Source: Escherichia coli
GTDB taxonomy: Bacteria; Pseudomonadota; Gammaproteobacteria; Enterobacterales; Enterobacteriaceae
Assembly (NCBI RefSeq): GCF_050920415.1
Contig: NZ_CP169309.1
Length of the DNA stretch: 64,000 nucleotides
Reading direction: 5' to 3' (one strand)
Shown: positions 3,308 through 26,830 of the stretch, piece by piece
Numbering within the stretch: position 1 is the first letter of the stretch
Layout of the letters: each line of letters begins with the position of its first letter
The notes under the pieces: model-generated
What the model was told of the DNA's origin: nothing
Seen by the model: the letters and a program-made list of their open reading frames with translations, nothing else
Database searches by the model: none
Translations under genes and position numbers: made by a program

Positions 3308-4401
3308 TAACGTCCCTCAAAATCTATACGCGGATCGACCAGCGTATAGCTGATATCACTGACAATATTCAGCAGCAGGCCAATCAGGGTGAAAATATAC
3401 AAGGTACCAAACATTACAGGATAATCGCGCGAGACGGTCGCTTCGTAGCCCAGTAAGCCAAGACCATTGAGTGAAAACATCACCTCAATCAGCAGCGAGC
3501 CGGTAAAAAACATGCTGATAAACGTCGCCGGAAAACCGGCAATCACCAGCAGCATGGCGTTGCGGAACACATGTTTCCAGAGAATATTTTTTTCACTTAC
3601 CCCTTTCGCACGGGCGGTCACCACGTATTGCTTGCGCACTTCATCAAGGAATGAGTTTTTTGTCAGCATGGTCAGCGCCGCAAAGCCGCCAATCACCGTC
3701 GCCAGCACCGGCAGCGTGATATGCCACAGATAATCGGTGATTTTCTGATACCACGGCAGCGAATCAAAGTTAGCGGAAACCAGGCCGCGCAGAGGGAACA
3801 GGTCGAAATAGCTGCCGCCCGCGAAGAAGACAATCAGCAGGATGGCAAACAAAAAGGCCGGAATGGCGTACCCGATGATGATAAATGCGCTACTCCAGAC
3901 GTCAAAGCGGCTACCATTATAAACAGCTTTGCGAATACCCAGCGGAATCGACACCAGATAGATAATCAGCGTGCTCCACAATCCGAGGGTGATGGAAACC
4001 GGCAGACTGTCTTTAATCAGCGTCAGCACCGAGGCGCTGCGAAACAGGCTATCGCCAAAATCAAAGCGGATGTAGTCCCAGAGCATTTTGAAGTAACGTT
4101 CGTGGATCGGCTTATCGAAACCGTAGCGATGAGTGATCTCGGCGATCACTTCTGGATCTAATCCGCGTCCACCACGGTAATTACTGTCGCTGATATTGCC
4201 GACGCCCGTTTGCGCATGGCTGGCGCGAACACCTTCACCGCCTGCGCCGGGTAATACTCCGGCATTACCAAACTCAATGGCGGCGATGGCCTGGTCGACC
4301 GGACCGCCAGGCGCAATTTGCACGATGAAAAAGTTGATAGTGATAATCGCCCATAACGTTGGGATCACCAGCAACAGACGGCGAATCAGATAAGCGCCCA
4401 T
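3307..4401 (-). CDS. yejB: Peptide ABC transporter permease
   Basis: 364 aa membrane ORF; overlaps yejE start by 1 nt; operon position. Confidence 0.9.
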
Positions 4402-6216
4402 CTACTCTCCCTGTTGTCTGGCTGACGGCAGTTTGGCCGCTTTATTAACGTCATACCACCATGTATCAATACCCAGGCTGTAAATAGGGCGCACCGCGGG
4501 TTGGGAGAATTTATCCCACCAGGCGAGACGGTCTTCCGCCATGTACCACATCGGCAGCATGTAATAATTCCACGTTAATACACGGTCCAGTGCGCGCCCC
4601 AACGGCAATAATTTTTCTTTATTTCCCTGGGCGGCAATAATTTGGTTGATCAGTGAATCGATAACCGGACTTTGCACGCCGGGAGCATTATAAGTGGAAT
4701 TGATATATTCCGATGACCAGGAAATCTGTAAATCAGAACTGGGCCACGGCATCGCCCGCCATACGCGAGGCATCATGTCATAGTCGCGACTGCGCATTCG
4801 ATTGGTGATTTGCGAGTTATCCACCTTGCGAATGTCCATGTTGATACCCAGCCGTTGCAGGCTGTGCTGGAACGGTAATACCCACTGACTATTGCTGCTT
4901 GCGGGAAGCAATAATTCAAAGCTGAGAGGCTGACCCGTTGTGGCATTAACGCGTTGCTGACCCTTCAGCACCCAGCCCGCTTCATTGAGAAGTTTGTCGG
5001 CTTTTAACAGGTTGTCACGATCGTAGCCATCGCCTTTCGATACCGGCGGCTGGTAGATTTGTGTGAAGACTTCTGGCGGAAGATCTTTTTTCATTGGTGC
5101 CAGAAGCACCAGCTCCGCGGCGTCGGGGTAATTTCTGGCTGCGTATTCGGTATTCTGAAAATAACTGTTCGTGCGACTCCAGGCATTGTAAAACAACGCC
5201 TTGTTCATCCATTCAAAGTCAAAGGCGAGAGTGATCGCTTCCCGGACCCGGCGATCGCTGAATACCGGACGTTGGATATTAAACGCCAGCCAGCGCGTAT
5301 CCTGGGCTGATTCGTTCTTTTGCTCATCTTTGATGATGTATTTCTTATCGAAATTTTTACCGGTATAGCGCGTGGCCCAGTTTTTGGCGTCGTTTTCCAT
5401 ACGCAAATCAAAGGCACCGGCTTTAAACGCTTCAAAGGCGACATTATCATCGAGGTAGTAATCGTAGCGAATGGTGTCGAAATTCCAGCGTCCACGGTTT
5501 ACCGGTAAGTTTGCTGCCCAGTAATCTTTCACGCGGGAATAGACAATATTTTGCCCCATTTTCCAGGACGTAATTCGGTACGGACCACTGGAAAGCGGAG
5601 GCGTGGCGAGCGGATCGCTAAGTTTGTGATTCTTCCAGTACTTTTCTGGAAAGACCGGCAGCGAAAACAGACTCAACATATCTTCTTTGCCGGGTTTCGC
5701 TAACTCAATACGCACGGTTAATGGTGCAATGGCTTTGACGGTGGTGCCTTTGTAGACCAGACGAAATTGCGGCACGCCTTCGGTCATAAATTTTTGAAAA
5801 GTAAACTCTACATCGCGGGCAGTAATGGGGGAACCATCATGAAAACGGGCGCGCGGATTAATTGCGACCTCCACCCAGGAATAATCGTCAGCATAGCGCG
5901 CACTTTCGGCAATCAGCGGATAATAACTGCCTGGTTCGTCATCGGAAGTAGTAAATAGCGTGTCGTACAACTGCTCGGTGCGTGCGCCTGGGTTGCCGCG
6001 CAGTGCATAGCGGTTGAAATTATCGAAGGTGCCGAGGGCTGACAACGTTATCTGCCCACCTTTTGGCGCGGCGGGGTTCACATAATCAAAATGGTTGAAA
6101 TTAAACGCGTACCGGGGTTCGCCCAGTACCGCAAAGGCATAGCTTTCCTTGATAGCCTGCGCCTGCGCACCAAAGGTGAACAGAGCGATAAACAGCAGCA
6201 GTATGCGCACAATCAT
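4402..6216 (-). CDS. yejA: Periplasmic oligopeptide/microcin C binding protein of the YejABEF transporter
   Basis: ORF 4402..6222 (606 aa) with signal peptide [19 protein letters not shown]; start probably at 6216 (604 aa). Confidence 0.9.
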
Positions 6217-18862: not shown

Positions 18863-18873
18863 TAAAAGGTGTG

Positions 18874-18902
18874 TTACAGGGCAGAAATTTCCTGCCCTGT
18901 AA
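18874..18902 (+). terminator. Hairpin immediately after fruA
   Basis: Inverted repeat ttacagggcag...ctgccctgtaa 12 bp after the stop; no clear T-tract. Confidence 0.45.
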
Positions 18903-19017
18903 CATTTGATGAGCGCAAAGGGAATGACCAGTTTGTGAATGTAATTTTATGAATTTAAATGGTTTTATCTTTCAGTAGAAACCTGAAATGTTCATCAAAC
19001 ACTAAGGTTATTTCCTC

Positions 19018-19045
19018 AAGGGCAGATTATTTCTGCCCTTTTTTA
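19018..19045 (+). terminator. Canonical intrinsic terminator
   Basis: gggcaga-ttattt-ctgccc stem-loop followed by TTTTTT. Confidence 0.6.
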
Positions 19046-19284
19046 GTGTTCCTGTTCTGTGCATCCCGTCACAAATTCCTCACTTTTGTAATTCAGGCAT
19101 TTAATCGCATTTTGTGAGCCTGCTCAAATCTGCCCATTTTGCCTCTCTGGCGGCAATTTACTTTACGTAAAACATGCATACTATGAGCACATGTTTAAAT
19201 ATGAACACATGTTTAAACCGTCTTTGCAGTATCTATATTCTTGTGGATTGACAGGGTTGGTAATTTTTTACCAGAGGACGTGCT

Positions 19285-20226
19285 ATGCGCGAAAAGGATT
19301 ATGTCGTAATTATAGGCTCGGCGAATATTGATGTCGCCGGATATTCACATGAATCATTAAATTATGCGGATTCAAATCCAGGTAAAATAAAATTTACGCC
19401 TGGTGGGGTAGGGCGCAATATTGCACAAAACCTGGCGTTGCTGGGTAATAAAGCCTGGCTACTGAGCGCCGTAGGCAGTGATTTTTATGGTCAATCGCTG
19501 CTAACGCAAACTAATCAATCTGGCGTTTATGTCGATAAATGCCTGATTGTGCCGGGAGAAAATACGTCGAGCTATTTATCATTACTCGATAATACCGGTG
19601 AAATGCTGGTTGCTATAAATGACATGAATATTAGCAACGCTATTACAGCTGAATATCTCGCACAGCACCGTGAATTTATTCAGAGGGCAAAGGTCATTGT
19701 CGCGGACTGTAATATCAGTGAAGAGGCACTGGCATGGATTCTGGATAATGCCGCCAACGTACCCGTATTTGTCGATCCTGTTTCTGCGTGGAAATGTGTC
19801 AAAGTGCGCGACCGTCTAAATCTGATCCACACTCTCAAGCCAAACCGCCTTGAAGCGGAAACCCTGAGTGGGATTGCGTTGTCAGGGCGTGAAGATGTGG
19901 AAAAGGTTGCCGCCTGGTTCCATCAACATGGCCTGAACCGACTGGTATTGAGCATGGGCGGCGACGGCGTTTATTACAGTGATATTAGCGGTGAAAGTGG
20001 TTGGTCTGCGCCGATTAAAACCAATGTCATTAATGTTACCGGAGCGGGCGATGCCATGATGGCGGGACTTGCTTCGTGTTGGGTAGACGGAATGCCGTTT
20101 GCCGAATCTGTTCGTTTCGCACAGGGATGTTCGTCAATGGCGCTCTCCTGTGAATACACCAATAACCCCGATTTATCGATTGCCAACGTTATATCGTTAG
20201 TGGAGAACGCAGAATGTCTGAATTAA
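19285..20226 (+). CDS. psuK: Pseudouridine kinase (PfkB family)
   Basis: 313 aa; ATG at 19285; overlaps psuG by 13 nt. Confidence 0.9.
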   Translation: MREKDYVVIIGSANIDVAGYSHESLNYADSNPGKIKFTPGGVGRNIAQNLALLGNKAWLLSAVGSDFYGQSLLTQTNQSGVYVDKCLIVPGENTSSYLSLLDNTGEMLVAINDMNISNAITAEYLAQHREFIQRAKVIVADCNISEEALAWILDNAANVPVFVDPVSAWKCVKVRDRLNLIHTLKPNRLEAETLSGIALSGREDVEKVAAWFHQHGLNRLVLSMGGDGVYYSDISGESGWSAPIKTNVINVTGAGDAMMAGLASCWVDGMPFAESVRFAQGCSSMALSCEYTNNPDLSIANVISLVENAECLN

Positions 20227-21152
20227 AAATTTCCCCTGAATTATTACAAATTTCCCCGGAAGTGCAGGACGCTTTAAAAAACAAAAAACCGGTTGTGGCA
20301 CTGGAATCGACCATTATTTCTCACGGGATGCCGTTCCCGCAAAATGCTGAGACGGCAATTGAAGTAGAAGACACAATTCGTAAGCACGGTGCTGTACCTG
20401 CAACAATCGCCATTATTGGTGGTGTCATGAAAGTAGGTTTGAGCAAAGAAGAAATTGAATTGTTAGGCCGTGAAGGACATAACGTGACGAAAGTCAGTCG
20501 CCGTGATTTACCTTTTGTCGTTGCCACAGGAAAAAATGGCGCGACCACCGTTGCTTCAACGATGATTATCGCGGCACTGGCAGGAATTAAAGTATTTGCA
20601 ACGGGGGGTATTGGTGGTGTACATCGCGGTGCGGAACATACATTCGATATTTCTGCCGATTTACAGGAACTGGCAAATACTAATGTCACCGTTGTTTGTG
20701 CCGGTGCAAAATCTATTCTCGATTTAGGATTAACAACAGAATATTTAGAAACCTTCGGTGTACCGTTAATTGGCTATCAGACAAAAGCGCTGCCTGCGTT
20801 TTTCTGCCGTACCAGCCCATTTGAAGTCAGTATTCGCCTTGATAGTGCCACGGAAATCGCTCGTGCAATGGCAGTGAAATGGCAAACCGGTTTGAACGGC
20901 GGCCTGGTAGTGGCGAATCCGATCCCGGAGCAGTTTGCGATGCCGGAGGAATCTATCAATGCAGCCATAGATCAAGCTGTCGCCGAAGCCGAAGAGCAGG
21001 GCGTTATTGGTAAAGAAAGTACACCGTTCCTGCTGGCTCGTGTTGCTGAACTGACCGGTGGTGACAGCCTGAAATCCAACATCCAACTGGTGTTCAACAA
21101 CGCCATTCTGGCGAGCGAAATTGCCAAAGAATACCAGCGTCTCGCGGGTTAA
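20214..21152 (+). CDS. psuG: Pseudouridine-5'-phosphate glycosidase
   Basis: 312 aa; operon with psuK and psuT. Confidence 0.9.
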   Translation: MSELKISPELLQISPEVQDALKNKKPVVALESTIISHGMPFPQNAETAIEVEDTIRKHGAVPATIAIIGGVMKVGLSKEEIELLGREGHNVTKVSRRDLPFVVATGKNGATTVASTMIIAALAGIKVFATGGIGGVHRGAEHTFDISADLQELANTNVTVVCAGAKSILDLGLTTEYLETFGVPLIGYQTKALPAFFCRTSPFEVSIRLDSATEIARAMAVKWQTGLNGGLVVANPIPEQFAMPEESINAAIDQAVAEAEEQGVIGKESTPFLLARVAELTGGDSLKSNIQLVFNNAILASEIAKEYQRLAG

Positions 21153-21245
21153 TTTCTGACGGGCAGAAAGCCGTCGCCCGTACTGATCATACATACCAAA
21201 ACCTGGCGCTAGCGCCGGGTTTACTGGCATGAAAGGAAAATCATT

Positions 21246-22496
21246 ATGGATATAATGAGAAGTTTGGTGGGTATGGTGGTATTGCTGGCAATTGCATTCT
21301 TATTGTCAGTGAATAAAAAAGGTATCAGCATACGCACGGTCGGGGCTGCATTGCTGCTGCAAATCGCTATTGGTGGCATTATGCTCTACTTCCCACCGGG
21401 AAAATGGGCAGTAGAGCAGGCGGCATTAGGCGTGCATAAAGTGATGTCTTACAGTGATGCCGGTAGCGCCTTCATTTTTGGTTCGCTGGTTGGGCCGAAA
21501 ATGGATGTCCTGTTTGATGGCGCGGGCTTTATCTTCGCCTTTCGCGTACTTCCGGCAATTATTTTCGTCACAGCGCTCATCAGCCTGCTGTACTACATTG
21601 GCGTGATGGGGCTGCTAATCCGCATTCTTGGCAGTATTTTTCAGAAAGCCCTCAACATCAGCAAAATCGAATCTTTTGTTGCGGTTACCACTATTTTCCT
21701 CGGGCAAAATGAGATCCCGGCGATCGTTAAACCGTTTATCGATCGCATGAATCGCAACGAGCTATTTACGGCAATTTGTAGCGGGATGGCGTCCATTGCC
21801 GGTTCGATGATGATTGGTTATGCCGGAATGGGCGTACCAATTGACTACCTGTTAGCGGCATCGCTGATGGCGATCCCTGGTGGTATTTTGTTTGCACGTA
21901 TTCTTAGCCCAGCCACCGAGCCTTCGCAGGTGACATTTGAAAATCTGTCGTTCAGCGAAACGCCGCCAAAAAGTTTTATCGAAGCGGCGGCGAGCGGTGC
22001 GATGACCGGGTTGAAAATCGCCGCTGGTGTGGCGACGGTGGTAATGGCGTTTGTGGCAATTATTGCGCTGATCAACGGCATTATCGGCGGAATTGGTGGC
22101 TGGTTTGGTTTTTCCAATGCCTCTCTGGAAAGTATTTTTGGCTATGTGCTGGCACCGCTGGCGTGGATCATGGGCGTGGACTGGAGTGATGCCAACCTTG
22201 CGGGTAGTCTGATTGGGCAGAAACTGGCGATTAACGAATTCGTCGCTTACCTGAGTTTCTCCCCATACCTGCAAACGGGCGGCACGCTGGAAGTGAAAAC
22301 CATTGCGATTATCTCCTTTGCGCTTTGTGGTTTTGCTAACTTTGGTTCTATCGGTGTAGTCGTTGGGGCGTTTTCGGCTATTTCGCCAAAACGCGCGCCG
22401 GAAATCGCCCAGCTTGGGTTACGGGCGCTGGCAGCAGCAACGCTTTCCAACCTGATGAGCGCGACCATTGCCGGGTTCTTTATTGGTTTAGCTTGA
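21246..22496 (+). CDS. psuT: Nucleoside (pseudouridine) transporter, NupC/CNT family
   Basis: 416 aa multi-TM; close paralogue of nupX at 24436. Confidence 0.9.
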   Translation: MDIMRSLVGMVVLLAIAFLLSVNKKGISIRTVGAALLLQIAIGGIMLYFPPGKWAVEQAALGVHKVMSYSDAGSAFIFGSLVGPKMDVLFDGAGFIFAFRVLPAIIFVTALISLLYYIGVMGLLIRILGSIFQKALNISKIESFVAVTTIFLGQNEIPAIVKPFIDRMNRNELFTAICSGMASIAGSMMIGYAGMGVPIDYLLAASLMAIPGGILFARILSPATEPSQVTFENLSFSETPPKSFIEAAASGAMTGLKIAAGVATVVMAFVAIIALINGIIGGIGGWFGFSNASLESIFGYVLAPLAWIMGVDWSDANLAGSLIGQKLAINEFVAYLSFSPYLQTGGTLEVKTIAIISFALCGFANFGSIGVVVGAFSAISPKRAPEIAQLGLRALAAATLSNLMSATIAGFFIGLA

Positions 22497-22566: not shown

Positions 22567-23226
22567 TTACTGCATCATCCCGGAGAATTTATTCTCCGGG
22601 TCCATCTCCAGCGCCAGCCCTAACAACTGCTTTCTGTTTTTAATCAGATACCCTTTCTTGCTTTTAATTAATAAACCGTCATGAATGAATTGCGCGAGAA
22701 CATATAAAAGATGTCGATAAGAAACGCCCAAATACTCTGCCGCTTGCGTATGCTTTTCGTGATAAAGATCACCTTCCTGCGAGAGTAATATAAAAGCTGC
22801 CAGGCGATTCACTAACGGAAATGATTGATTCTGAGTTAAAGAAACAATATTACGATAATTTTTATGACTTAAGGTGACGCAGAGTTTTCGTAAAAATAGC
22901 GTGTCGTTTAATAACAGCGGACGGTAATGTTTCATGGGGAGTGCAAGGCACCAACACTCTTCAATCGCCTGTACCGCTCGTGGTTCATGATCTTTATCGA
23001 TTAACTCAATCTCGCCAATAAAACAGGGTGCAGCAAAGAAATCAATCAGCGACACGCGACCATTAGCAAGCGTGGCGTAAAGCCTGGCGCGGCCTCGCGT
23101 CAGGTAAAACAGCCATGACGGCTGTTGCCCTTCCTGCACAATGTAGTCACGCGCTAAAAAATGAAACAGCCGTGTATCGGCTGAAACATCCGTTGAAAAG
23201 CAATCCTTATACGCGGACTCACTCAT
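22567..23226 (-). CDS. yeiL: CRP/FNR-family transcriptional regulator
   Basis: ORF 22567..23265 trimmed to MSESAYKD start (219 aa). Confidence 0.85.
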
Positions 23227-23394
23227 CAATTGCTGCTTAAGATCATTATTGTGGATTTCTTTCACGATGTTTATCCGCTATGAGATTTCTCATATTTAGC
23301 ATACGTACGCTGTTGTTAAGATTCAATCATCGGCCCGGTCGAATTTTCTTTGCTGTAGAAAAAATAACGCAACTGGAAACAGAGGAAATAAACA

Positions 23395-24336
23395 ATGGAA
23401 AAGAGAAAAATTATTCTGGATTGTGATCCGGGTCATGATGATGCTATTGCCATAATGATGGCCGCGAAACATCCGGCGATTGATTTATTAGGTATCACTA
23501 TTGTGGCGGGGAATCAAACCCTCGATAAAACATTAATTAATGGTCTGAATGTTTGCCAGAAACTGGAGATTAACGTTCCGGTTTATGCGGGGATGCCGCA
23601 ACCCATTATGCGTCAACAAATCGTTGCTGATAATATTCACGGTGAAACCGGACTGGATGGCCCGGTATTCGAACCGCTGACCCGTCAGGCAGAAAACACC
23701 CATGCGGTGAAATATATCATCGATACCCTGATGGCAAGCGATGGCGATATCACTCTGGTGCCGGTTGGTCCGCTTTCAAATATCGCGGTGGCAATGCGTA
23801 TGCAGCCCGCAATCCTGCCGAAAATCCGTGAAATTGTGCTAATGGGCGGCGCTTACGGTACTGGCAACTTCACCCCATCTGCCGAGTTCAACATCTTTGC
23901 TGACCCGGAAGCGGCGCGAGTGGTGTTCACCTCCGGCGTTCCATTAGTGATGATGGGCCTCGATCTCACCAACCAGACCGTTTGCACTCCGGACGTGATT
24001 GCTCGGATGGAAAGGGCAGGCGGCCCTGCCGGAGAGTTGTTCAGCGACATCATGAACTTCACTCTGAAAACCCAGTTCGAAAACTACGGTCTGGCTGGCG
24101 GCCCGGTACATGACGCCACCTGTATCGGTTATCTGATTAACCCTGATGGCATTAAAACCCAGGAGATGTACGTCGACGTGGACGTTAACAGTGGCCCTTG
24201 TTACGGGCGTACCGTCTGCGACGAGCTGGGCGTTCTTGGCAAGCCCGCCAATACCAAAGTCGGCATCACTATTGATACCGACTGGTTCTGGGGATTAGTC
24301 GAAGAGTGCGTGCGCGGCTACATCAAAACCCATTAA
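23395..24336 (+). CDS. rihB: Pyrimidine-specific ribonucleoside hydrolase
   Basis: 313 aa; N-terminal DCDPGHDDA nucleoside-hydrolase motif. Confidence 0.95.
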
Positions 24337-24435
24337 GTGTTGATAACAAGCCGGGACAGTATCGCAAGATGCAGGCCCGGCTATTTCTGATGGGCAGAAA
24401 GACGTCGCCCAAAATGACATGAAGAGATAATAACT

Positions 24436-25686
24436 ATGGATGTCATGAGAAGTGTTCTGGGAATGGTGGTATTGCTGGCAATTGCGTTTTTGCTGTCAGT
24501 AAACAAGAAGAAGATCAGCCTGCGTACCGTTGGCGCGGCGTTAGTGTTACAGCTCGTGATTGGCGGCATTATGCTTTGGTTACCACCAGGGCGTTGGGTC
24601 GCAGAAAAAGTCGCTTTTGGCGTCCATAAAGTGATGGCGTACAGCGATGCAGGTAGCGCTTTTATCTTCGGTTCTCTGGTCGGACCGAAAATGGACACCT
24701 TATTTGATGGCGCAGGATTTATCTTTGGTTTCAGGGTATTACCGGCAATTATCTTCGTCACTGCACTGGTGAGTATTCTCTACTACATCGGTGTAATGGG
24801 GATCTTAATTCGCATTCTCGGCGGTATCTTCCAGAAAGCGTTAAATATCAGCAAGATTGAGTCATTCGTCGCGGTCACTACCATTTTCCTCGGGCAAAAC
24901 GAAATTCCGGCAATCGTCAAACCCTTTATCGATCGTCTGAATCGCAATGAATTATTTACAGCGATTTGTAGCGGGATGGCCTCGATTGCTGGTTCGACAA
25001 TGATTGGTTACGCCGCACTGGGCGTGCCTGTGGAATATCTGCTGGCGGCATCGTTAATGGCGATCCCTGGCGGGATCTTGTTTGCCCGCATGTTAAGTCC
25101 GGCTACGGAATCTTCGCAGGTTTCCTTTAATAACCTCTCTTTCACCGAAACACCGCCAAAAAGCATTATTGAAGCCGCTGCTACAGGGGCAATGACCGGG
25201 CTGAAAATCGCTGCGGGTGTGGCGACAGTGGTGATGGCATTTGTCGCCATCATTGCGTTGATCAACGGTGTTATCGGCGGCGTTGGTGGCTGGTTTGGTT
25301 TTGAACATGCCTCGCTGGAGTCCATTTTAGGTTACCTGCTGGCCCCGCTGGCGTGGGTGATGGGTGTTGACTGGAGTGATGCGAATCTTGCCGGAAGTTT
25401 GATTGGACAGAAACTGGCGATTAATGAATTTGTCGCTTACCTCAATTTCTCACCTTATCTGCAAACAGCTGGCACTCTGGATGCTAAAACCGTGGCGATT
25501 ATTTCCTTCGCGTTGTGCGGTTTCGCTAACTTTGGTTCTATCGGGGTGGTGGTTGGCGCATTTTCTGCGGTTGCGCCACACCGTGCGCCGGAAATCGCCC
25601 AGCTTGGTTTACGCGCGCTGGCGGCGGCGACACTTTCTAATCTGATGAGTGCCACCATTGCAGGATTCTTTATTGGCTTAGCGTAG
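24436..25686 (+). CDS. nupX: Nucleoside transporter, NupC/CNT family
   Basis: 416 aa; high identity to psuT throughout. Confidence 0.9.
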   Translation: MDVMRSVLGMVVLLAIAFLLSVNKKKISLRTVGAALVLQLVIGGIMLWLPPGRWVAEKVAFGVHKVMAYSDAGSAFIFGSLVGPKMDTLFDGAGFIFGFRVLPAIIFVTALVSILYYIGVMGILIRILGGIFQKALNISKIESFVAVTTIFLGQNEIPAIVKPFIDRLNRNELFTAICSGMASIAGSTMIGYAALGVPVEYLLAASLMAIPGGILFARMLSPATESSQVSFNNLSFTETPPKSIIEAAATGAMTGLKIAAGVATVVMAFVAIIALINGVIGGVGGWFGFEHASLESILGYLLAPLAWVMGVDWSDANLAGSLIGQKLAINEFVAYLNFSPYLQTAGTLDAKTVAIISFALCGFANFGSIGVVVGAFSAVAPHRAPEIAQLGLRALAAATLSNLMSATIAGFFIGLA

Positions 25687-25741: not shown

Positions 25742-26830
25742 TTACACCATCGGCACTAATGAAAGCGCGTTATCGGCAGACAGGGTAGGGTTGTTTAAGC
25801 TGCCGCTGGCGCGTGAAATTGCCGCGCAGGCCATCGCAAAACGGGCACTATCACGGAAACTGCTTCCTTCCAGAAAGCTATACACCAGGCCCGCCATAAA
25901 ACCATCGTCAGCACCAAAACTGTCTACCGTCGTATGCGCTGGCGCAGTCAGCAAAAATTGTTCGCCATCCTTTTGGCTGCAATAAACAGACTCATCGGGC
26001 AAATAAACAAACAGTTGCTGAACGCCTTGCTGATGCAACGCATTCACTGCGGCATTACGATCAGCATCGCGGGTTATCGGCTGGCCCCATAAAATTTCCA
26101 GCTCCGGCAAAGTGGGTTTCAGAGTGTGAATATGCGCCAGCCAGTGTTTGATTTTGCCCGCTTTGAATTCTGAAACGGTATCGACAAACACCGGGATTTC
26201 ATCAGCGAGGGTAAAGACCCACTCCAGCGCCTCGGCTGTCAGGTTGCAATCAGCCAGTACCACGCCCGCATGACGAAGTAAATCGCGCGACCCGTTCAGT
26301 AGTTGCGGTGTCAACTGATCCAGCAGATGGGTATCGTTAATCGCCAGCACGGTTTGATCGTCTCGATTGGCAATTGCCAGATACGTCGATGTGCTTTGAC
26401 CATGTAAACGAACGCAGCCGGAGACATTCACGCCGGCGCGGCGCGTTTCTTCCAGGAGCATTTCGCCATAAAAGTCATCGCCAATCACTGAAAGCAAATG
26501 GACGTCGCGGCCTAACAGCGCCAGATTGTGGGCGATATTGCGTCCAACGCCGCCTGCCGAGCAATGAATTGTACCGGGATGAGAAGCCGCTTGCGGGTAA
26601 CGGATATCCGCCATCCCGCGAATATCCATATTGATTGTCCCCACCACTACGCAGTATTCCTGCTCGGTGAGAATGTAACCTTTGCCTTTAATCCGACCTT
26701 TGCGCATTAAATCCATAATATGCGCTGCAACACGCGAACGGCTGATTTGCAGCATATCCGCAATTTCGTTCTGCTGAATCAGCGGGTTACGCCTTAATAT
26801 TGCAAGGATCTCCTTCTCCCGGTTATTCAT
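25742..26830 (-). CDS. yeiI: HTH-domain plus PfkB-family sugar kinase
   Basis: 362 aa; N-terminal HTH, C-terminal carbohydrate kinase fold. Confidence 0.85.
   Translation of the reverse strand: MNNREKEILAILRRNPLIQQNEIADMLQISRSRVAAHIMDLMRKGRIKGKGYILTEQEYCVVVGTINMDIRGMADIRYPQAASHPGTIHCSAGGVGRNIAHNLALLGRDVHLLSVIGDDFYGEMLLEETRRAGVNVSGCVRLHGQSTSTYLAIANRDDQTVLAINDTHLLDQLTPQLLNGSRDLLRHAGVVLADCNLTAEALEWVFTLADEIPVFVDTVSEFKAGKIKHWLAHIHTLKPTLPELEILWGQPITRDADRNAAVNALHQQGVQQLFVYLPDESVYCSQKDGEQFLLTAPAHTTVDSFGADDGFMAGLVYSFLEGSSFRDSARFAMACAAISRASGSLNNPTLSADNALSLVPMV

Follow-up and report, generated by a model that had tools for sequence, protein, structure and literature searches.

Two short tandem repeats lie upstream of psuK, the first gene of the psuKGT operon for pseudouridine catabolism in Escherichia coli. 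They were analysed in a stretch of 64,000 nucleotides (contig NZ_CP169309.1 of the NCBI RefSeq assembly GCF_050920415.1), which we call the window. Sequence comparison shows that the repeats are an old, conserved pair of putative protein-binding sites on the psuKGT promoter. On balance, we favour the view that this pair is a dual operator for a pseudouridine-sensing repressor of the YeiI type, a protein in which a helix-turn-helix (HTH) domain is joined to a PfkB kinase-like domain (HTH-PfkB). YeiI was preferred to YeiL, the other candidate encoded nearby, because, in the loci examined, the array co-occurs with an HTH-PfkB gene and not with yeiL, and because it is found where the HTH-PfkB protein is the only DNA-binding protein of the locus.

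Two conserved dyads in the psuK leader

In the window the genes run in the order fruBKA, then psuK-psuG-psuT, on the + strand, with the psuK ATG at 19285. The main features are:

19182-19199 / 19200-19217, + strand: 18-bp tandem duplication, TATGAGCACATGTTTAAA / TATGAACACATGTTTAAA (Tandem Repeats Finder score 65).
19185-19196, no strand: putative operator site 1, GAGCACATGTTT (dyad match; 13-sequence alignment; position weight matrix (PWM) score 16.1).
19203-19214, no strand: putative operator site 2, GAACACATGTTT, which starts 18 bp past site 1 (13-sequence alignment and PWM).
19169-19174, no strand: AAAACA in the promoter spacer, conserved only in the Escherichia-Citrobacter-Buttiauxella group and not in Pluralibacter.
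19285-22496, + strand: psuK-psuG-psuT operon, the presumed controlled genes (open reading frames and K-12 annotation; PsuK is a pseudouridine kinase in NCBIfam, 711.8 bits).

The original prediction had described two exact copies of the 12-mer CACATGTTTAAA at 18-bp spacing. Both copies are at the positions it gave (19188-19199 and 19206-19217), and the repeat unit is really 18 bp long: positions 19182-19217 are a head-to-tail duplication of TATGA(G/A)CACATGTTTAAA, in which 17/18 bases are equal. This pair is the sole direct repeat with at least 17/18 equal bases within 40 bp in the 64-kb window, and the same criterion returned 0 cases in 20 shuffles of the window that approximately kept its dinucleotide content. 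No other copy of CACATGTTTAAA with at most one mismatch was present in the window. The overlapping 12-mer GAACACATGTTT has one more copy there, at 3565, in a coding region and without a partner, and no further motif copies were seen near yeiL-rihB, nupX or yeiI. Beyond the window, a blastn search with a 45-bp query, which weak or diverged sites would escape, found one place per E. coli genome and no second copy. The K-12 MG1655 sequence is identical to the window across the repeat region. Among E. coli genomes, 3817 share this 45-bp region at 99% identity or more, and the copy number appears stable, since almost every genome with a match covers 80% or more of the query.

The leader was then viewed in an alignment of 13 sequences: the window, K-12 and eleven fetched loci encoding close PsuK relatives, namely three further Escherichia lineages, E. 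albertii, four Citrobacter, a Raoultella-labelled metagenome-assembled genome (MAG) and two Buttiauxella. The block 19155-19218 is conserved in this alignment, and the approximately 70 bp between the block and the ribosome-binding site diverge freely. Site 1 has the consensus G/A-A-G/A-C-A-Y-R-T-G-T-T-Y and site 2 the consensus G-A-A-C-A-Y-R-T-G-Y-T-Y, with a variable A/T-rich hexamer between the dyads. The central dinucleotide depends on the species (CA, TG, CG or TA), and site 2 of E. albertii, GAACATATGTTC, is a perfect palindrome. The feature kept in evolution is thus two 12-bp dyads of the form RAACA-YR-TGTTY and not the exact direct repeat, because the centre flips between CA and TG and because the Pluralibacter array is a perfect inverted repeat. 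Sites 1 and 2 are also the top-scoring PWM pair in the window.

These results modify the original prediction in several ways. Its palindromic core, ACATGT, is not the conserved part, and the true dyad axis lies 1 bp further left. The related aaacatgcat that it had noted just upstream is present at 19170-19179, but only the AAAACA part is conserved; scored as a full site, AAAACA is poor (0.1 with the PWM), and it may be an auxiliary half-site. The repeats had been assigned simply to the leader, whereas they overlap the likely -10 element and the likely transcription start. Binding by a dimeric regulator, as had been proposed, fits the dyad symmetry of both copies, their conservation amid diverging flanks and their recurrence in seven more genera; the arrangement would, however, suit two dimers and not one. 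Finally, the comparative evidence supports the earlier impression that the motif is not one of the standard E. coli operator classes.

The psuK leader occurs in E. coli as two sharply different allele classes among complete genomes. The window-type leader (4231 complete genomes) has the -35 TTTACT, the -10 TACTAT, site 1 GAGCACATGTTT and site 2 GAACACATGTTT. The E. albertii-like leader (1200 complete genomes, ~22%) has the -35 TTTACA, the -10 TATTAT, site 1 GAACATGTGTTT and site 2 GAACAC(A/G)TGCTC. The exact identity of the two copies is a property of one allele, the window type. Note that the E. albertii-like class combines a better core promoter (TTTACA / TATTAT) with a diverged leader (for example, locus L014 at 4428-4618, and locus L025). 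The existence of the two alleles suggests recombination or an old polymorphism at this regulatory region.

The promoter under the dyads

The following promoter features were recognised:

19157-19162, + strand: -35 hexamer TTTACT, of the form TTTAC(T/A) in 13/13 aligned sequences.
19179-19184, + strand: -10 hexamer TACTAT, 16 bp past the -35 and conserved as TACTAT, TATCAT or TATTAT.
19113-19128, no strand: proximal CRP-like site TGTGAgcctgcTCAAA, with 1 mismatch to TGTGA-N6-TCACA, conserved in all genera examined.
19058-19073, no strand: distal CRP-like site TGTGCatcccgTCACA, with 1 mismatch to TGTGA-N6-TCACA, 55 bp upstream of the proximal one.

The psuKGT promoter is, to judge from these elements, a sigma-70 promoter with a weak -35 that is probably assisted by CRP. 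A -35 of the TTTAC(T/A) type also occurs in Yersinia, Serratia, Xenorhabdus and Pluralibacter. Because the -10 ends at 19184, transcription is expected to start at about 19191. Site 1 begins directly after the -10, and the two dyads span about -6 to +24 relative to that expected start, which is the position of a repressor.

A mutation that has been selected repeatedly in the laboratory and in the mouse gut falls on the same promoter. The single-nucleotide polymorphism (SNP) 'psuK/fruA intergenic, 2257444 A>C' repeatedly increased in frequency when K-12 colonised mice (PMC7518454, PMC9509342, PMC6731689, PMC10340439), and three populations in long-term stationary phase acquired an A>C labelled psuKp (PMC7858067). 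Its authors called the SNP a promoter-region mutation and described changes in psuK expression and growth. The shift between NC_000913.2 and NC_000913.3 was taken as 1978, the sole value that reproduces four reported srlR amino-acid changes. With this shift the SNP is position 2259422 of the.3 version and position 19159 of the window, where it is T>G in the sense of psuK and turns TTTACT into TTGACT. Since a recurrent beneficial mutation makes a near-consensus -35 exactly 16 bp from the conserved -10, there is strong evidence that the TTTACT/TACTAT pair is the functioning promoter. We did not find this base-level reading in the papers that we consulted on the mutation. A different promoter proposed by a consensus scan (-35 TTTAAA at 19212 and -10 TATATT at 19234) was rejected, since it lacks conservation beyond Escherichia and its spacing is disrupted in locus L004 by an 11-bp deletion.

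One-mismatch matches to TGTGA-N6-TCACA number 8 in the window, with 1.7 expected. A CRP-like site 52-55 bp upstream of the proximal one was also found in E. albertii, in four Citrobacter-type loci and in Pluralibacter, and Buttiauxella has only the proximal site at up to 2 mismatches. The two sites would be centred at about -70.5 and -125.5, figures that rest on the inferred transcription start.

Between the two CRP-like sites, at 19094-19111, the sequence reads CAGGCATT-ta-ATCGCATT, two GCATT-containing octamers 2 bp apart. Together with the CRP-like sites, this layout resembles that of CytR/CRP nucleoside promoters such as deoP2 or cdd, and CytR control of psuKGT is possible.

The array in distant genera

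The PWM was trained on sites from Escherichia, Citrobacter and Buttiauxella only, and whole loci of 11-13 kb were scanned with it for the highest-scoring pair of sites spaced 17-20 bp apart. In all seven of the more distant genera listed below (7/7), the best-scoring pair lies upstream of the psu operon:

Yersinia: best pair 20.1, runner-up 6.9; array AGACAcaTGTTT-aaaaac-AAACAagTGTCC-attATG.
Serratia: best pair 19.8, runner-up 1.6; array AAACTcaTGTTT-aaaaac-AAACAagTGTCC-aatATG.
Pasteurella: best pair 11.9, runner-up 5.3; array AAACAaaAGTTG-aaaaat-AAACAggTGTTG-attATG.
Shewanella: best pair 22.6, runner-up 8.3; array AAACAaaAGTTT-(7 nt)-AAACAtaTGTTT.
Aliivibrio: best pair 15.2, runner-up 5.4; array AAACAatAGTTA-(7 nt)-GAACAtaTGTTT.
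Pluralibacter: best pair 35.3, runner-up 8.0.
Affinibrenneria: best pair 20.4, best unrelated pair 11.8.

In these genera the second site follows the first at 18-19 bp. In Yersinia, Serratia, Pasteurella, Shewanella and Aliivibrio, the distance from the start of the downstream site to the start codon is 15-39 bp. In Pluralibacter the pair is 117 bp upstream of the psuK start, directly after TTTACT-N-TATAGAT, and forms a perfect 30-bp inverted repeat, AAACACATGTTCacatatGAACATGTGTTT. The Affinibrenneria pair lies 276 bp upstream of the called psuK start, still in the intergenic region upstream of psuK.

Two further observations concern Yersinia and Serratia. In both, the HTH-PfkB gene is called from a start codon within putative operator site 1 (ATG TTT AAA; locus L015, 6001-6030; locus L016, 6001-6030), and a second ATG 27 nt downstream aligns with the N-terminus of YeiI. 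In these two genera, the nine-residue N-terminal extension of the annotation probably results from a mis-called start. An additional palindrome of the same kind as the dyads, AACCAAACACTTGTTTGGTT, was seen approximately 250-275 bp upstream of the operon in Yersinia (L015, ~5749-5768) and, in a weaker form, in Serratia (L016, ~5742-5761). This palindrome might be an auxiliary operator for DNA looping.

HTH-PfkB proteins and the array

The genes considered as candidate regulators and their neighbours are:

25742-26830, - strand: yeiI, the candidate regulator (Pfam: HTH_24 winged helix and PfkB kinase-like domain).
22567-25686: the yeiL, rihB, nupX block, which separates psuT from yeiI only in E. 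coli and its nearest relatives.

By Pfam, YeiI consists of an HTH_24 domain at residues 1-48 (E = 2e-10) and a PfkB domain at residues 58-348 (E = 1.6e-67). It is 39% identical to PsuK, and NCBIfam names it merely 'sugar kinase'. In E. albertii, the four Citrobacter, the Raoultella-labelled MAG and both Buttiauxella, yeiI lies directly after psuKGT in convergent orientation. The arrangement of psuK-psuG-psuT with a convergent yeiI is also intact in Pluralibacter and Affinibrenneria, with different flanking genes in Affinibrenneria. The organisation is another one in Yersinia, Serratia, Pasteurella, Xenorhabdus, Shewanella, Aliivibrio and a Ruminococcaceae genome: here the HTH-PfkB gene is the first gene of an [HTH-PfkB]-psuG(-psuT) operon, and no separate psuK is present in these seven loci. 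Every array-bearing psu locus examined has an HTH-PfkB gene in it or adjoining it. Of the two regulators that the original prediction had named as candidates, YeiI is favoured by this synteny, and YeiL is disfavoured.

The part of YeiI that would contact DNA is its better conserved part. Its HTH shares 65-72% identity with the HTH domains of the fused gamma-proteobacterial proteins, vs 38-48% for the kinase part, and a putative recognition helix, SRSxVAxHIMxL, is common to YeiI and these proteins. The HTH of the Ruminococcaceae protein, from a locus without the array, is more different (53%).

For the other domain, residues S30, N143 and K170 of the E. coli pseudouridine kinase have been reported to set pseudouridine affinity and specificity (PMC9061257). 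All three are invariant in our protein alignment (A3), YeiI included, which is consistent with an effector domain in YeiI that can bind pseudouridine. The catalytic GAGD motif is intact in PsuK and in the gamma-proteobacterial fused proteins and reads GCGD in the Ruminococcaceae protein; E. coli YeiI and the Pluralibacter protein read GADD at this position, and that of Affinibrenneria reads GADE. YeiI may be a pseudo-kinase that binds a ligand. In the fused Yersinia protein, the kinase domain resembles PsuK (60%) more than YeiI (48%). Searches found no solved structure that includes the YeiI HTH domain and, in the literature searched, no characterised HTH_24-PfkB transcription factor.

Two side observations concern the yeiL block. 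With ~88% identity to PsuT, NupX is a recent paralogue. YeiL has homologues of ~58-60% identity in Enterococcus, which suggests horizontal transfer.

Weighing the alternatives

Several observations weigh against a dual operator for YeiI. The HTH-PfkB operon is present in Xenorhabdus and the Ruminococcaceae genome, yet the PWM scan recognised no array in their loci. In E. coli, yeiI is 5.5 kb downstream of psuK and does not adjoin it; its start is 3 bp from the nfo stop, and it is probably co-transcribed with nfo. Leaving aside the partnerless 12-mer, no second motif copy lies near yeiI or elsewhere in the window, and the regulon would be this single site. The case against YeiL is itself tempered by the existence of YeiL homologues in other Enterobacterales. 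Lastly, the half-site centres within each dyad are 7 bp apart, which is tight for an HTH dimer. If the inner half-sites are paired across the hexamer instead, as TGTTY-N6-GAACA (19192-19207), their centres are 11 bp apart, the canonical geometry of an HTH dimer, and this unit fits a protein of the DeoR/GlpR type equally well. The reader of the array could then be a DeoR/GlpR-family protein or a global nucleoside regulator, with orphan half-sites on either side and YeiI merely a kinase paralogue. C. werkmanii reads ATGTTCGATATTGAACAT, close to the GlpR consensus WATGTTCGWTAWCGAACATW, and DeoR's own operator has the same TGTTn-N6-nAACA layout. We nevertheless regard this explanation as unlikely. 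The N6 spacer is the least conserved part and the outer half-sites are conserved as well as the inner ones, which argues for two complete 12-bp dyads; E. coli reads TGTTTAA, without the CG of the GlpR half-site; and the period is 18-19 bp, not 20-21. Moreover, the psu loci examined hold no main-Pfam DeoR gene, only a faint DeoR-HTH match on a GntR-family gene of Yersinia, and the array tracks the HTH-PfkB gene across orders.

The remaining explanations have even less in their favour. Binding by YeiL, a Crp/Fnr-family regulator with cNMP-binding and Crp-type HTH domains, is suggested by the position of yeiL, which in E. coli adjoins psuT, and by TGAACA-N2-TGTTTA, whose 14-bp layout is that of the PrfA box of another member of the family, TTAACA-N2-TGTTAA. 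It is improbable, however, given that E. albertii, Citrobacter, Buttiauxella, Pluralibacter and Affinibrenneria keep the array but have no yeiL-rihB-nupX between psuT and yeiI, and that no Crp-family gene was seen within 5-6 kb in the array-bearing loci of Yersinia, Serratia, Pasteurella, Shewanella and Aliivibrio; yeiL adjoins the operon only in Escherichia, a placement younger than the array, and it travels with rihB-nupX, suggesting these genes as its targets. About as improbable is that the repeats act in the RNA, as a 5'-terminal stem-loop (19193-19203 with 19208-19218) that stabilises the psuK messenger RNA (mRNA) or is a target of the small RNA RprA. The leader RNA does fold better than its shuffles (z = -3.25) with a predicted 11-bp 5' hairpin, 82.5% of cells are paired in the Escherichia-Citrobacter-Buttiauxella alignment, where one pair has changed on both sides, and psuK appears among the RprA targets of RIL-seq and TRIC-seq data (bioRxiv 10.1101/2025.09.11.675593). 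Much of this pairing, however, is G-U or follows automatically from two side-by-side DNA dyads, and the pair count is biased, as the structure was derived from the E. coli sequence itself. The arms are unpaired by eye in Yersinia and Serratia, although the DNA dyads are kept there; Rfam gave no match to the leader and nothing near the gathering threshold; and the energy of the RprA-leader duplex (unconstrained RNAduplex) is no better than that of shuffles (fraction 0.29). Hardly credible, finally, is a recent neutral 18-bp tandem duplication without function. The copies are exactly head to tail and equal at 17/18 bases, and their exact identity is limited to a single allele class of E. coli and its near relatives; yet both sites recur with the same spacing in genera separated at the order level, and the 45-bp region is near-uniform in E. 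coli, with an apparently stable copy number.

A proposed mechanism and its history

For a YeiI operator we propose the following mechanism. PfkB kinases, PsuK among them, are dimers. A dimer of the winged-helix and PfkB-kinase-like protein, in E. coli most likely YeiI, would sit on each dyad, and two such dimers across about -6 to +24 would exclude RNA polymerase or block promoter escape. Pseudouridine or its 5'-phosphate would bind the kinase-like domain and free the protein from the DNA. The catabolic genes would thereby be induced when their substrate is present, with activation coming from CRP. Here we infer the identity of the regulator, repression rather than activation, the inducer and the start site alike.

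The gene arrangements suggest how such a system might have arisen. The ancestor would have been one fused protein that was both kinase and autoregulator, as is probably still the case in most gamma-proteobacteria. In the Escherichia/Citrobacter lineage a duplication would have followed, after which PsuK lost the HTH and became a pure enzyme, and YeiI kept the HTH while its catalytic motif decayed. We offer the whole picture more tentatively than the operator itself: YeiI-type proteins as a family of kinase-derived, pseudouridine-sensing transcription factors, split from a kinase-autorepressor, with the array as their operator and the -35 SNP as an escape from tight control.

Under ciprofloxacin, PsuG and PsuK are reported to be among the most strongly RecA-dependent proteins, with levels that differ by up to ~2^6-fold when a recA mutant is compared with the wild type (PMC11039860); changes of this size suggest inducibility and fit a tightly regulated operon. 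The operator model leaves both the RecA dependence and the targeting by RprA unexplained. A LexA box was considered on account of the RecA dependence and rejected, as no CTGT-N8-ACAG is visible by eye in the region.

Comparison with known systems

Several known regulators likewise have an HTH fused to a domain that binds a metabolite of the pathway: the bifunctional BirA, NadR and archaeal RbkR, and the ROK repressors NagC and Mlc. As with the proposed YeiI system, such enzyme-derived repressors are encoded in or beside the operon that they would control, and the operator overlaps the promoter. The split between PsuK and YeiI parallels that between NagK and NagC, a kinase and a kinase-like repressor. 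What differs is the sensor fold, which is PfkB (ribokinase-like) in YeiI and ASKHA/ROK, biotin ligase or riboflavin kinase in those systems.

Winged-helix proteins of the Lrp/AsnC type bind short palindromes of 13-15 bp, for example, FL11 (TGAAA-N3-TTTCA), and closely spaced half-sites in multi-site arrays are typical of the group. The N-terminus of YeiI matches HTH_24 (2e-10) and, weakly, an HTH_AsnC-type domain. YeiI differs from this group in having no RAM/ACT effector domain, its half-site sequence is another one, and its similarity to solved Lrp-type structures is not significant (E = 0.1-0.4).

With the GlpR/DeoR systems the array shares TGTTC/GAACA half-sites 6 bp apart and tandem sites over the likely -10/+1 of a catabolic promoter that is probably CRP-dependent; it differs in its period (18, not 20-21 bp), in the GlpR CG, which is missing in E. 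coli, and in four equally conserved half-sites. The likeness to the PrfA box extends to the 14-bp palindrome, the 2-bp centre and the AACA/TGTT core. Crp/Fnr proteins, however, usually activate from -41.5 or further upstream, and the psuK sites at -6 to +24 suggest repression. The consensus sequences of KdgR, NsrR, FNR and the LacI family were also tried, and none fits the spacing. An operator pair on a CRP-assisted catabolic promoter is ordinary in kind; the likely regulator is not.

These proposals have some general interest. They would give a concrete role to YeiI, still called uncharacterised in papers from 2022 and 2025, and would be the first proposed regulatory mechanism for bacterial pseudouridine catabolism. 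Literature searches found no published regulator or operator for psuKGT and nothing relevant on YeiL in connection with nucleosides. The psuK/fruA A>C change, among the most repeatable mutations of the mouse gut and of long-term stationary phase, would create a near-consensus -35 at a weak, repressed, CRP-assisted promoter. The PfkB-kinase fold would become a sensing domain of transcription factors, and the separation of enzyme and regulator a clean case of subfunctionalisation. In applied terms, the operator and YeiI might be used as a pseudouridine biosensor or as an engineering target in strains; there is active work on making pseudouridine for mRNA vaccines, in which psuK and psuG have already been manipulated.

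Other features near the operon

A second RNA structure lies apart from the dyads:

19257-19274, + strand: stem-loop UUGGUAA-UUUU-UUACCAG, just 5' of the psuK Shine-Dalgarno sequence (minimum-free-energy fold).

Across the 13 sequences, 92% of the cells of this stem-loop are paired, and the pair 19261/19270 covaries (C-G in 7, U-A in 5 and U-G in 1). RNAalifold missed the hairpin owing to indels in the loop, and the pairs were counted on a hand-specified structure. The stem-loop could affect translation or mRNA stability, and it might be the site of RprA action.

Past fruA, two related terminator-like hairpins, 141 bp apart, were seen at 18872-18904 (AGGGCAGAAATTTCCTGCCCT) and 19018-19040 (AGGGCAGATTATTTCTGCCCT). 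In Buttiauxella and Pluralibacter, the stretch examined has one hairpin. Rfam gave no match for the ~110 bp that separate the two hairpins; this inter-hairpin stretch may be an insertion, a duplication or the gene for a small transcript.

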